A stretch of 52,541 nucleotides of DNA from a virus (lineage: Duplodnaviria > Heunggongvirae > Uroviricota > Caudoviricetes): the IMG/VR virus record IMGVR_UViG_2531839449_000043; one strand, given 5' to 3'. The first letter of the stretch is position 1, and every line of letters begins with the position of its first letter. Position numbers: made by a program. Shown here piece after piece: positions 33,401 through 36,400 of this stretch.

Positions 33401-36400
33401 GATGCTGGTCCGGCAGGCCCGCAGGGGCCGAAAGGTGACAGGGGAGAGCGGGGAGAGACCGGTCTGACGGGAAATGCAGGTCCACAGGGTCCAAAGGGAG
33501 ATACCGGTGCGGCAGGCCCGGCAGGCCCACAGGGACCGAAAGGAGAAACAGGTGCGGCAGGCCCGGTGGGGGCGACCGGACCTCAGGGGCCGAAGGGCGA
33601 CCCGGGGGAGACGCAAATACGGTTCCGTCTGGGGCCGGGAAACATTATTGAGACAAACAGCCATGGCTGGTTCCCGGATACAGATGGCGCACTCATCACC
33701 GGACTGACCTTTCTTGACCCCAAAGATGCCACACGGGTTCAGGGTTTTTTTCAGCATTTGCAGGTCAGGTTTGGTGACGGGCCGTGGCAGGATGTCAAGG
33801 GGCTGGATGAAGTGGGCAGTGATACAGGCAGAACAGGAGAATGACATGAATATTTTGAGAAAGCTTATGCAGAGTCTGTGCGGTTGCGGAAAGCATGATG
33901 ACTGTGAAAACGGGCAGTCGCTTACAGCACAACTGCGACTGGGACCGGCAGACATTCTGGAGTCAGATGAGAATGGCATTATTCCGGAGCAGGACAGGGT
34001 AATCACACAGGTGGTGATACTGGATGCAGATAAAAAGCAGATACAGTGTGTGGTAAGACCGCTGCAAATCCTGCGTGCTGACGGGACGTGGGAAAATATT
34101 GGCGGGATGAAATAGCCGACAGCTTCACAAAAACCGGAGCCCGGCTCCGGTTTTTGTTGTCATGTATAGGGGGGGTTATTAGAGAGTGAAGTAATAAACA
34201 TGTTAATACGATGGAGTGAAGGATGCCGTGTAATTCTGGTTCAAGAGTTTTTTATGCCGGAAAATCGCAGGATTATTCTGGATAGTAAAGAATCCTGGTT
34301 AATAATCTGTGATAGTCAGTTGGGCCATTTAATGCGCAGTATGTATCAGGGACGCCGTTTTATTCAGCTGAATCTGGAAAAATTGAAAGGGGTACATGAT
34401 GTCGCCTTGCCAGTGAAATGGGAATTCACACGAAGACAGTGAATAGCTTTCTGTATACGGGAATGGCGAAAAATGGACTGTATGGTGTGAGTGTGAAACA
34501 TCTTGCGTGTGCGGAGTGATGCTTCTCGTTGCTACAGCGGCAATGATAATGCAGTGAAAAAAGGGGAGCAATATGCTCCCCCAAACCGAAAGAAAATTGC
34601 AATAATCAATGAAGTTATTTAGTCATCATCAGAATGTCATGCAAGGCATTTTGTTTCAGTGATGCCGATCGCGATTTTAGCGAATTCCATCATAAATCCC
34701 CTGATTTTTAAGCCTGAAGCAGTCAAAGGAATTTCTATGCCCTATATCGATATCACCACGATGCGTGGGATGATGCCGCGCGTTGTGACATCCATGCTGC
34801 CCGAGCATTCCGCTGTACTGGCGGAGGACTGCCATTTCCGGTTTGGTGTTATTACACCAGAACGTCAGATATCCGGGGTTGAGAAAACATTCACAATTAA
34901 GCCAAAAACAATTTTTCATTACCGTGACGATTTCTGGTTTGCATGGCCGGATGTGGTGGATGTGATCCGCAGTCCGATCGCTCAGGACCCCCACGGGCGT
35001 ATTTACTACACTGACGGGCGTTTTCCTAAAGTGACGGATGCGACTATTGCCACAAAAGGGGACGGGAATCACCCGACATCATCGTATCGTCTGGGGATCC
35101 CCGCGCCGACGACAGCTCCTGTCTGTACTGTTCAGCAGGGCGGTGATGTTTCTGACGATAACCCGAATGATGATGAAACCCGGTTTTATACGGAAACCTT
35201 TGTCTCAGATTATGGTGAAGAAGGTCCGCCAGGTCCGGTGTCTCTGGAGGTAACACTCCGTACTCCGGGAACTGCGGTACAACTGACGCTGGCTCCGGTG
35301 CCATTGCAGAATGCCAGTATTAAACGTCGCCGGATTTATCGCTCTGCATCAGGTGGAGGGGAGGCGGATTTTTTACTTGTGGCTGAACTGGATGCATCCG
35401 TGCTCAGTTACACGGACAAAATACCGGCGAAAAACCTTGGGCCTTCCCTGGCGACATGGGATTACCTGCCGCCGCCAGAGAATATGACAGGCCTTTGCCT
35501 GATGGCTAACGGTATTGCCGCCGGGTTTGCCGGTAATGAAGTGATGTTTTCGGAAGCGTATCTGCCGTATGCATGGCCGGAAGTGAATCGTCACACGACG
35601 GCAGAAGATATTGTAGCTATCTGTCCGCTGGGAACGTCACTGGTGGTGGCGACAAAGGGGGAGCCTTATTTGTTCAGTGGGGTATCACCGTCCACAATTT
35701 CTGGTTCCAAAATCCCTTCAATGCAGGCGTGTCTGAGCAGGCGGAGTATGGTTGCGATGGAGGGTTTTGTGCTGTATGCAGGAACAAATGGCCTGGTGTC
35801 TGTTGATGCAAACGGTAATGTCGCGCTGGCGACGGAACAGATTGTTTCACCGGAACAGTGGCAGAGTCAGTTTAATCCGGCCTCCATTGTGGCTTATCCC
35901 TGGCGTGGTGAATACATTGCCTGTTACACGAAACCGGATGGTAAGCAGGATGTGTTTGTATTCAGTCCGGTGAACATGGATATCCGTTATCTCAGTACAC
36001 CGTTTGACTGCGCATGGGTTGATCTCGCGAAAGATATGATGCGCGTGGTGACAGGAGACAAAATGTCAGTGCTTGCCGGGGGGGCTCTGCCCTCCACGAT
36101 AAGGTGGCATTCAAAAATTTTTTCATTACCTGAAAGAACCTCTTTTTCCTGTATCAGGGTGAAATCTCCGGCGCCTGAGCGGGTGGGGATCACCATTATG
36201 GCTGATGATGTTCCTGTGATTCATTTTGCGCCGGGTACGTTTAAGGGAAGTGTGGTGAGACTTCCGGCAGCAACCGGGCAAAACTGGCAGGTGATGGTAT
36301 CCGGATTCGGGCAGGTGGAACGAATAACCCTGAGTACATCAATGTCGGAGATGCCGGTATGACCAGAAAACCGTGGCGTGCGGGGAAGGATTTATCCACT

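Follow-up and report, generated by a model that had tools for sequence, protein, structure and literature searches.

A very probable decayed accessory locus between the side tail-fibre module and ORF70 of a 933W/Sp5-type Stx2 phage

The 621-nt gap in the structural module of the window (the whole 52,541-nt stretch of viral DNA analysed here, IMGVR_UViG_2531839449_000043) is very probably a decayed accessory ('moron') locus that occupies a slot of variable content separating the side tail-fibre module from ORF70. The window is a short-tailed Stx2a phage of the 933W/Sp5 type, and the gap (34116-34736) is bounded by ORF68/ECs1229 on the left and the essential tail gene ORF70/ECs1232 on the right. 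It is ordinary, non-essential leftover DNA, neither a hidden tail gene nor an intact cargo gene. At its left end it retains the bidirectional terminator of a Phage_fiber_C fibre module exchanged with lambdoid prophages, followed by a regulator-family pseudogene. Two events inactivated this gene: the loss of 174 bp flanked by 9-bp repeats and a frameshifting, out-of-register allele joint of ~112 nt. The segment is completed by the last 14 codons of a 43-aa gene, the minus-strand terminator of dinI, a spacer of weak conservation, and the leader of ORF70. The terminator, ORF, and palindrome named in the original prediction are all present, with small corrections to their coordinates. Its proposal of inserted cargo in the tail block holds in so far as this is accessory DNA outside the structural backbone, but the cargo is decayed and its ORF is a chimeric pseudogene fragment.

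Cargo and exchangeable-effector loci occur downstream of tail-fibre genes in lambdoid prophages. In the window, the GC content over 34100-34800 (0.40-0.46) is lower than that of ORF70 (0.51-0.55) and of the fibre gene (0.5-0.7), and the base composition of the gap is thus distinct from that of the flanking phage genes, as in morons (a concept of Juhala et al. 2000, cited in PMC4104026). The gap also shares with morons a fixed backbone position at which the DNA is absent or replaced in some relatives. The same slot holds an adhesin gene and cor in phage 86 and phi367, a YadA-like adhesin gene together with intact versions of both small genes in PhiR5_2, an Avd and reverse-transcriptase cassette in Aeromonas phiARM81mr, and, with no gap at all, one 705-bp gene in Vibrio D79, and the Shigella phage 75/02 Stx, a relative without the segment, has none of the gap DNA. 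The low GC content and the differing slot contents favour the idea of accessory DNA inside the tail gene block. A search for paralogues within the window gave no further copy of dinI or of either small gene (the regulator-like gene and the 43-aa gene). Complete E. coli genomes from O157, O111, O26, and O145 (~270 in all) retain the remnant with an identity of at least 99%, which probably reflects recent common ancestry. Such conservation is also compatible with a function, and as such counts against reading the segment as a relic.

The left flank, ORF68/ECs1229 (33846-34115, plus strand), encodes an 89-aa stand-alone Phage_fiber_C domain protein (PGAP and P27 annotation; Pfam PF06820, E = 5e-36) and is non-essential in Sp5 (PMC5155283). 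The adjoining 3' tail of the tail-fibre C-terminal module (34116-34172, plus strand) is 93-98% identical to many long-tailed lambdoid Stx prophages. Positions 1-42, 1-50, or 1-57 of the gap used as query match many lambdoid Stx1/Stx2 phages, and the median number of places per E. coli genome is 11 with the fibre-module tail in the query vs. 1 without it. This tail contains a predicted intrinsic terminator hairpin (34127-34157), slightly longer than the span of 34129-34155 first reported for it, whose 15-nt arms at 34127-34141 and 34143-34157 (ACAAAAACCGGAGCC and GGCTCCGGTTTTTGT) are 100% complementary. As the core (CCGGAGCC-C-GGCTCCGG) is preceded by AAAAA and followed by TTTTTGTTG, i.e. by A5 upstream and T5 downstream, the terminator is bidirectional in form, with a GC-rich stem-loop and a U-tract on both strands. 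The hairpin is stable in both the MFE and centroid structures, and a perfect stem of at least 15 bp was seen in none of 2000 first-order Markov simulations of the gap (621 nt). This first terminator is thus a component of the fibre C-terminal module common to lambdoid prophages and not of the cargo.

The 80-codon ORF that follows (ORF80; 34200-34442, plus strand, ATG start) is present as predicted and already annotated as ECs1230, Sp5 ORF69, and, in part, L0123 of 933W. Its length alone is within chance, since 32% of the simulations (621 nt each) produced an ORF of 80 codons or more in one of six reading frames. Pfam and NCBIfam searches of ORF80 yielded no match, in agreement with the earlier impression that the gap contains no recognisable structural gene, and the ORF is not part of a larger conserved tail gene. 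ORF80 is homologous to members of phrog_6585, a regulator-like family of 156-180 aa. Its own protein clusters number only five and have ragged lengths of 54-121 aa. ORF80 is a chimeric pseudogene fragment of this E. coli prophage protein family and not an intact gene. Its first six codons stem from DNA that was once non-coding, the remainder corresponds to residues ~21-95, and the end is out of frame. With tblastn, residues 25-77 and 119-156 of the intact proteins are matched in two different frames of the window, and the family alignment shows that it lacks the N-terminus and residues ~96-118. An alignment over the full ~156 residues of a phrog_6585 protein, with the invariant N-terminal T7/N9/Y11/E13/G15 and the LTMSEM...KTV HTH segment, is not obtained; only ~21-95 and 119-157 can be aligned, in two frames.

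Base-level DNA alignments placed three junctions in the gap. At the first (34219-34227, plus strand), a single copy of the 9-bp repeat AAGGATGCC is left at 34219, whereas the intact allele L006 has two copies (at 2609 and 2783) 174 bp apart; the 174 bp lost between these repeats include the start codon with its ribosome-binding site as well as the first 20 codons. The second (34397-34402, plus strand) is an out-of-register joint of two diverged alleles of the regulator-like gene. It lacks ~112 nt, which code for residues ~96-118 at the beginning of the HTH domain, and consequently shifts the frame. To its left, the DNA is 94.5% identical to L006 and 70% to the alleles L005 and L007; to its right, identities are 90-93% to L005/L007 and 73% to L006, and the two pseudogene fragments thus derive from different alleles. 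The right-hand fragment (34400-34519, plus strand) consists of the C-terminal 39 codons (CRLASEMGIHTKTVNSFLYTGMAKNGLYGVSVKHLACAE) and a stop in a frame that differs from that of ORF80, with 87-95% tblastn identity to residues 119-156 and 129-167 of intact proteins. L006, the allele type of the left fragment, is carried by a Stx1a lambdoid phage, where it immediately follows the fibre terminator and neighbours NleG-like genes. Comparisons between intact alleles gave dN/dS values of 0.1-0.2, indicating purifying selection, vs. ~0.5 between the window fragment and its nearest intact allele; with only 10 substitutions, the latter value is no more than suggestive.

Downstream of the pseudogene, the last 14 codons and the stop of a 43-aa membrane-protein gene (phrog_9340) are found at 34513-34557 (plus strand). 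Approximately 141 nt of its 5' part are deleted, and tblastn aligns GVMLLVATAAMIMQ with GVLALVATAAVVMQ, each followed by a stop. A type I toxin-antitoxin system, in which a small hydrophobic ORF is paired with a convergent RNA, was considered and rejected, as only these 14 codons survive. The remnant runs into a second hairpin (34556-34582), a predicted intrinsic terminator of the minus strand with 8-bp arms (GGGGAGCA and TGCTCCCC; 34563-34570 and 34574-34581) and a U6 tract on that strand only (A6 at 34557-34562 on the plus strand), so that the sequence at 34563-34581 has the form of a terminator on the minus strand alone. The palindrome reported here is therefore real, but its loop is ATA and not the 4-nt ATAT, and it spans 34563-34581 rather than ~34557-34585. 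Compared with the simulations, the 8-bp stem alone is marginal (P ~0.08). Nevertheless, the hairpin is conserved in four diverged contexts (phage 86, PhiR5_2, PhiR12_2, and L013), with two compensatory changes (C-G to T-A and A-T to T-A).

The origin of this hairpin is given by the intact cassettes of two prophage types, in which the order is YadA/Eib-like adhesin gene, regulator-like gene, 43-aa gene, hairpin, and dinI on the minus strand. We take the cassette adhesins to be immunoglobulin-binding Eib proteins, with our test covering the YadA anchor domain only. In these cassettes dinI ends at a convergent terminator, of which the second hairpin is a relic. Its minus-strand U-tract has been kept even though no minus-strand gene feeds it here, an observation that counts against a relic. 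Both genes of the gap are truncated or frameshifted, and they do not form an autonomous cargo unit with its own promoter and a downstream terminator on the cargo strand: the only plus-strand promoter-like site (34279-34306) lies inside the ORF, scores 9/12, and is no better than those in shuffled sequences, and the downstream U-tract is on the opposite strand. The segment presumably has no present protein-coding function. During lytic growth, Q-antiterminated late transcription would read through the gap toward ORF70/71, and the second hairpin would at most block stray antisense transcription.

Our literature search for the locus tags ECs1230/1231, L0123, and Z1484-6 yielded a single relevant study, on Sp5 deletion mutants. 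ORF69 is dispensable in Sp5, and its deletion (34209-34430 in the window) resulted in several-fold more plaques and lysogens, for which the authors suggested a regulatory function (PMC5155283). Since the deletion has a phenotype, the DNA is not strictly neutral, and the higher yield probably reflects a cis cost of junk DNA on the expression of the downstream tail genes. A pseudogene offers a concrete account of the unexplained ORF69 phenotype that can now be tested as cis vs. trans. It is unlikely that the remnant has been co-opted, either as a cis brake on late transcription or translation before ORF70/71 or through its minus-strand terminator, which would mark a prophage-expressed antisense RNA over the ORF70 leader. 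The brake would explain the several-fold rise in yield after removal of 34209-34430, and the antisense RNA might act similarly to STnc6030 of phage BTP1, limiting superinfection or leaky tail-gene expression.

As no complementation was reported for the deletion mutant, a trans-acting product is also conceivable, namely a truncated receiver-like peptide translated from ORF80/ECs1230 that dampens phage production. The phenotype and the regulatory role proposed by the authors would fit such a peptide, as would the invariant D52 region of the family, which the fragment retains, and a 62-aa form starting at ATG 34254, preceded by an AAGAG-type ribosome-binding-site-like motif, is accepted by the PGAP and P27 annotations. 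However, ORF80 lacks beta1/alpha1 and the whole DNA-binding domain, and its non-coding first codons, its out-of-frame last residues, its few and ragged clusters, its chance-level length, and the lack of trans-complementation in PMC5155283 make this peptide quite improbable.

The non-coding spacer downstream of the second hairpin (34583-34665) has no Rfam family and no significant similarity to dinI, and its identity to phage 86 and PhiR5_2 (68-82%) is the lowest in the neighbourhood. The idea of a dinI remnant at 34583-34670 was rejected, as comparison with two dinI alleles, by tblastn and by local alignment of the DNA, gave nothing significant (z ~1.3, P ~0.12). The spacer is followed by the ORF70 leader (34666-34736, plus strand; Shine-Dalgarno AAAGGA at 34725-34730), which is part of a tract of 97-100% identity that runs into ORF70. 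Because this tract extends at least 250 nt into the gene, it reflects mosaic recombination and not specific constraint, and we rejected the conservation of the leader as a sign of a regulatory element.

This region would be the body of a minus-strand RNA if the hairpin at 34563-34581 formed the 3' end of a transcript antisense to ORF70 or of a trans-acting sRNA, with a start within or close to the ORF70 leader (~34610-34690) or deeper in the gene. The canonical minus-strand terminator with a U-tract conserved in every context, the minus-strand fold z-score of ~-2.6 to -2.8, and the arrangement of moron, convergent terminator, and conserved phage ORF, which resembles AsxR/AgvB sites, would all be consistent with such an RNA, for which STnc6030 of Salmonella phage BTP1 is a precedent (reviewed in PMC12197685). 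Yet the putative RNA body is the least conserved part of the neighbourhood, its predicted folds differ between the two types, and a convincing sigma-70 promoter is lacking: the minus-strand search of the gap gave none at the tool threshold, the best candidate in a relaxed scan (TTCAGG-18-TATGAT, ending at 34689) scores 8/12, and the extended -10 element TGCTATGAT of PhiR5_2 and phage 86 is CATGAC in the window. No Rfam family matched within the gap when the whole window was scanned at gathering thresholds, and a scan of 33000-36000 at E values up to 1 revealed only sub-threshold RsaOG and DapZ matches driven by the terminator hairpin. Furthermore, the published Hfq-CRAC table lists no peak in the corresponding Sakai region (1287133-1287754; PMC4104026, Table S2), and the dinI terminator of the ancestral cassette fully explains the hairpin, leaving a minus-strand RNA as doubtful as the translated peptide. 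An AsxR/AgvB-type anti-sRNA was also rejected: there is no RF02702 or RF02703 match, the core pattern is absent from the whole window, and AsxR adjoins stx2 and not the gap. The sRNA PasB, described as 'embedded in phage structural operons', is an improbable candidate, since only 24 phage genomes are reported to carry it (bioRxiv 10.64898/2026.05.13.724894), vs. more than 150 for the gap.

The right flank, ORF70/ECs1232 (34737-36362, plus strand; 541 aa, phrog_511), starts at ATG 34737 according to PGAP and P27 and has homologues conserved out to podophages of Aeromonas, Vibrio, and Ralstonia. In Sp5, ORF67, ORF70, and ORF71 are essential, and ORF70 is needed for tail formation (PMC5155283). 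It is extremely improbable that a structural or tail-assembly gene has gone unrecognised in the gap, or that the gap contributes the 5' end of a longer, 567-aa ORF70: although the 933W and original Sakai annotations begin L0124/ORF70 at GTG 34659 and ORF70 covers only positions 319-859 of the 862-aa phrog_511 profile, a good Shine-Dalgarno sequence precedes ATG 34737 and none precedes GTG 34659, the Aeromonas and Vibrio homologues (540-553 aa) align from residue 1 of the 541-aa form, the DNA upstream of the ATG in Shigella 75/02 Stx is unrelated, and ORF69 is dispensable.

The significance of a decayed accessory locus at this position lies mainly in annotation. Hundreds of records for Stx phages and EHEC list L0123/ECs1230/ORF69 as a 'hypothetical protein'; it would best be flagged as a pseudogene fragment, and the small ORFs called around it are noise. 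The gap also illustrates how the exchange of fibre modules between long- and short-tailed Stx phages can drag along and erode the adjoining cargo. A by-product of the analysis is an uncharacterised, E. coli-restricted NarL/FixJ-like family, which rides with YadA-type adhesin and NleG-like effector genes in prophages. The intact family comprises 44 clusters, all from E. coli, mostly of 156-181 aa and without a Pfam domain. Its AF2 model (pLDDT 84) looks like a NarL/FixJ response regulator, and these regulators are the only top matches in the fold search (E = 3.5e-4, probability 0.99, TM 0.3-0.49). The family profile matches LuxR/GerE HTH proteins weakly (E = 0.08-0.27), with Pfam GerE unmatched.

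Similar to the NarL/FixJ regulators RcsB, EvgA, FixJ, and StyR, the intact family is modelled with a receiver-like alpha/beta domain and a four-helix C-terminal domain, and its best PDB matches are all of this type (Foldseek probability 0.9-1.0). In contrast to them, its proteins have only 156-180 aa and match neither Pfam Response_reg nor GerE at threshold. The receiver acidic pocket (DD after beta1, a phospho-acceptor D after beta3, T/S, and K) is incomplete, as D52 after beta3 is invariant but beta1 ends in ATRN, with the N-terminal acidic pair replaced by invariant T7/N9. With its first beta-alpha unit and the beginning of the HTH missing, the window copy is not a functional member. Compared to the AsxR/AgvB anti-sRNAs, the gap does not resemble their conserved 3' core of ~42 nt, matches neither AsxR, AgvB, nor Esr41 in Rfam, and lacks an Hfq-CRAC peak in Sakai and a promoter, but its hairpin likewise opposes the late operon between cargo and a conserved phage gene.

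The closest likeness in gene order is to the adhesin cassette of E. coli lambdoid prophages. The window lacks the adhesin gene and dinI, three junctions have removed ~427 of the ~680 nt of the two-gene part, and the left fragment comes from an L006-type allele instead of the 157-175-aa regulator-like gene of the cassette; still, the homologues of its second gene (the two ORF fragments), third gene (the 14-codon tail), and terminator (the hairpin) follow one another in the same order. Unlike typical morons and effector loci, the gap has only damaged genes and lacks a convincing promoter of its own, its 3' terminator faces the wrong way for the cargo strand, and it lies amid the essential tail genes of a short-tailed phage and not at a prophage end. 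What it has in common with them is that it is extra DNA at a fixed position, with variable content, a lower GC content, and terminators at its borders.

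The 1-kb stretch around the gap between the fibre-associated gene and the next large tail gene (window 34116-34736) has 100% identity with the Stx-converting phages vB_EcoS_P27 and Stx2a_F723, as well as with the Stx2 prophage carried by the O157:H7 strains EC4115 and TW14359; its identity with 933W and Sakai Sp5 is 99.9%. The phages matching the window are short-tailed Sepvirinae (Traversvirus), and stx2A and stx2B are found at 15386-16626. The gap is an ordinary piece of a very well studied phage, already annotated and already deleted experimentally. It is AT-richer than the flanking sequence and lies between ORF68 (ECs1229) and ORF70 (ECs1232, L0124; ATG at 34737, with AAAGGA upstream). 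Comparison with relatives identifies it as what erosion has left of an accessory cassette of two genes, with a terminator at either border. The original prediction of inserted cargo was right about its origin and wrong about its present state, as both small genes are truncated or frameshifted.

The 80-codon ORF claimed at 34200-34442 (plus strand; ORF80) is real as a reading frame and corresponds to L0123 of 933W, ECs1230 of Sakai, and "ORF69, 80 aa" of Sp5. L0123 is annotated in 933W as 93 aa with a start farther upstream, and the PGAP version is cut to 62 aa. Since ORFs of at least 80 codons occurred in 32% of simulated 621-nt sequences, its length is no evidence of a gene. The profile searches suggested for this ORF gave no match in Pfam or NCBIfam, but in PHROGs it matched a family of identical 80-aa ORFs from Stx phages and positions 21-85 of phrog_6585 (156 aa), whose intact members occur in Escherichia phages PhiR5_2 and PhiR12_2 and one long-tailed Stx1a phage. 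In a database of 5.8 billion proteins, relatives of ORF80 form only five clusters of ragged length (54-121 aa).

The intact proteins match the gap twice by tblastn, in two different frames: residues 25-77 correspond to 34230-34389 in the ORF80 frame and residues 119-156 to 34400-34516 (87-95% identity), and in the family alignment residues 1-20 and about 96-118 are absent from the window copy. Base-level alignments place three lesions. The first is the loss of 174 bp between a pair of AAGGATGCC copies (positions 2609 and 2783 of locus L006, from the Stx1a-converting phage Stx1a_PV02105), of which one is left at window 34219; codons 1-20 disappeared along with the ATG and the ribosome-binding site, and the remainder became joined in frame to a fortuitous upstream ATG, so that codons 1-6 of ORF80 are former non-coding DNA. 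At the second (34397-34402), about 112 nt are missing and the frame is shifted. Left of this joint the sequence is 94.5% identical to the Stx1a-phage allele vs. about 70% to the PhiR alleles, and right of it 90-93% identical to the PhiR alleles vs. 73% to the Stx1a-phage allele; judged by these identities, lesion 2 is an out-of-register recombination joint of two diverged alleles and not a simple deletion. The third lesion removed about 141 nt directly past the stop codon of the regulator-like gene (TGA, 34517-34519), and of the 43-aa membrane-protein gene (phrog_9340) only the last 14 codons and the stop are left (34513-34557). Differences among intact phrog_6585 alleles are mostly synonymous (dN/dS 0.1-0.2), and the window fragment has a dN/dS of about 0.5 relative to its nearest intact allele, a value from only ten substitutions that fits relaxed constraint without proving it.

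The intact family comprises 44 clusters of mostly 156-181 aa, restricted to E. coli, annotated as "hypothetical" and without Pfam domains; neither Pfam nor NCBIfam has a model for it. In an AlphaFold model built from a 21-sequence alignment (mean pLDDT 84), the N-domain is alpha/beta and receiver-like, and the C-domain has four helices. The PDB structures that the model matches best are solely NarL/FixJ response regulators (StyR, LiaR, FixJ, DesR, RcsB, EvgA, and DosR), with probabilities of 0.9-1.0 but TM scores of only 0.3-0.49, and the sequence profile weakly matches LuxR-family HTH proteins and GerE (E = 0.08-0.27). In contrast to canonical receivers, the acidic pair is missing. At four loci (L005:799-2799 and L007:979-2798, with PhiR-type alleles; L013:2763-4670 and L018:2869-4660, E. 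coli loci with the full cassette), the gene is always directly 3' of a YadA-anchor trimeric-autotransporter adhesin gene and upstream of the 43-aa gene and a convergent dinI. Its product is a candidate for a regulator dedicated to the prophage adhesin.

The backbone common to the relatives consists of the DUF6682 gene, the fibre, a slot, ORF70, and the tail-tip fibre. Slot contents differ: in phage 86 and phi367 the fibre is a different one, accompanied by an adhesin, cor, and a frameshifted remnant of the 43-aa gene with the hairpin; PhiR5_2 has the adhesin and both small genes intact; in Shigella phage 75/02 Stx the DNA is unrelated and the hairpin is missing; and Vibrio phage D79 shows no gap but a single additional gene. 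The comparison with relatives that had been proposed therefore bears out a variable site. Among 5,426 complete E. coli genomes, about 270 share the remnant state, fixed at an identity of at least 99%. In Aeromonas phage phiARM81mr, the slot (L009:2828-4461) holds genes for a "23S rRNA-intervening sequence protein" (Avd-like) and a retron-type reverse transcriptase, right behind the structural gene at the fibre position, and resembles a diversity-generating retroelement that targets the fibre. To the right of the slot, ORF70 (34737-36362) covers only positions 319-859 of the 862-position phrog_511 profile ("internal virion protein"), and the Aeromonas and Vibrio homologues examined are about as long as ORF70; some family members must therefore have about 320 aa more at the N-terminus, as an additional domain.

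The terminator called at 34129-34155 is present as a hairpin with perfect 15-nt arms (34127-34141 and 34143-34157), A5 ahead and T5 behind, a stem that was not attained in any simulation of the gap. The Phage_fiber_C module, which is shared with long-tailed lambdoid prophages, extends over the initial 42-57 nt of the gap, including this terminator; queries containing this part hit a median of 11 sites per EHEC genome, while the remaining gap is single-copy. The essential fibre protein ORF67 has a C-terminal Phage_fiber_C domain (33620-33844), followed by a second, stand-alone copy, the 89-aa ORF68 (33846-34115), whose sequence with the terminator is the part recurring about 11 times per EHEC genome. 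ORF68 has been suggested to be a reservoir for fibre variation (Mondal et al., PMC5155283). In Stx1a_PV02105 (L006:2722-3975), which is long-tailed, the regulator-like gene lies directly behind the fibre terminator and is joined at its 3' end to part of a third Phage_fiber_C coding sequence. A 210-aa ORF follows ("unknown function" in PHROGs), which we take to be NleG-like. The repeated fibre-C segments appear to be recombination sites that shuffle cargo.

The palindrome predicted at about 34557-34585 lies at 34563-34581 with an ATA loop (GGGGAGCA-ATA-TGCTCCCC). On its own it departs only marginally from expectation (P about 0.08 by simulation), but a terminator scan identifies a canonical minus-strand intrinsic terminator (GGGGGAGCATATTGCTCCCCT then TTTTTTCAC); the plus strand past it has no U-tract. 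In every context examined, the hairpin is directly behind the stop codon of the 43-aa gene. PhiR12_2 and two unrelated chromosomal prophage types share the order tail fibre, YadA-anchor adhesin, regulator-like gene, (43-aa gene), and hairpin, followed by dinI on the opposite strand and the prophage end; in L013 the hairpin is 18 nt beyond the dinI stop. The stem is preserved by two compensatory changes (C-G to T-A in PhiR12_2, A-T to T-A in L013), and the A-run forming the minus-strand U-tract is present in all contexts. The simplest reading takes this hairpin for the terminator of convergent dinI, one that entered the 933W lineage together with the cassette's 3' end. The window has no dinI, and the spacer at 34583-34670 has no significant similarity to it.

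In-frame deletions in Sp5 showed that ORF67, ORF70, and ORF71 are essential and ORF68 and ORF69 are not, and deletion of ORF69, which by the primers used spans window 34209-34430, raised the numbers of plaques and of lysogens several-fold above those of the wild type (Mondal et al., PMC5155283). The gap segment is not needed for infectious phage production. Based on established lambdoid-phage biology, Q-modified RNA polymerase from pR' is predicted to pass both hairpins and reach ORF70/71 in the lytic cycle. The remnant probably encodes nothing useful, and AT-rich RNA of about 400 nt, translated poorly or not at all, plus a strong terminator ahead of essential tail genes may impose a small cost, which would account for the higher yield on partial deletion. 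The deletion phenotype could instead be due to a residual peptide or RNA. Both this unexplained phenotype and the uncharacterised regulator-like family, intact elsewhere, are mildly worth following.

Because the conserved minus-strand terminator invites the idea of a minus-strand RNA ending there, we searched for one; the terminator was the sole positive support, whereas no Rfam family was found, minus strand 34583-35100 has no convincing sigma-70 promoter (best candidate 8/12), the window has a mutated version of the extended -10 seen in PhiR5_2 and phage 86, the stretch that would form the RNA body shows the lowest conservation in the neighbourhood (68-82%), its predicted folds differ between the two sequence types, and the Hfq-CRAC catalogue for Sakai has no peak within 1287133-1287754, the equivalent of the gap. 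The second hairpin may incidentally keep antisense transcripts out of the fibre genes. The Hfq-CRAC catalogue places the Sp5 peaks close to stx2, behind lom, and at the end of the prophage (PMC4104026). The peak EcOnc53 (Sakai 1292386-1292438) is immediately 3' of lom, and its equivalent in the window, just downstream of lom, is about 4 kb downstream of the gap and unrelated to it. This site is presumably the lom-vb_24B_43 region reported for the microRNA-size RNA 24B_1 of Phi24B.

The gap is no sRNA locus of the AsxR/AgvB type. Downstream of stx2B (16357-16626) and an STnc100-family RNA (16701-16902), a minus-strand terminator hairpin (GCCCGCGTCTCCCAGCGCGGGC then T6, 16890-16980) occupies the position of the anti-sRNA AsxR in Sakai Sp5; as the conserved AsxR/AgvB core is absent across the whole window and Rfam AsxR gave no match, this seems to be a different convergent sRNA-like element. 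On the minus strand at 4278-4465, a C4 antisense RNA (78.9 bits) adjoins IsrK (61.7 bits; Rfam gathering threshold), the P1/P7-type antirepressor-control RNA pair known in Stx phages.

Unlike an autonomous intact moron, the gap has no promoter and no intact gene, and its terminator is on the wrong strand. Although it is no functional member of the adhesin-associated prophage cassettes, it is homologous to them, and it resembles a moron or cargo slot in its deviant composition and in content that varies among relatives.
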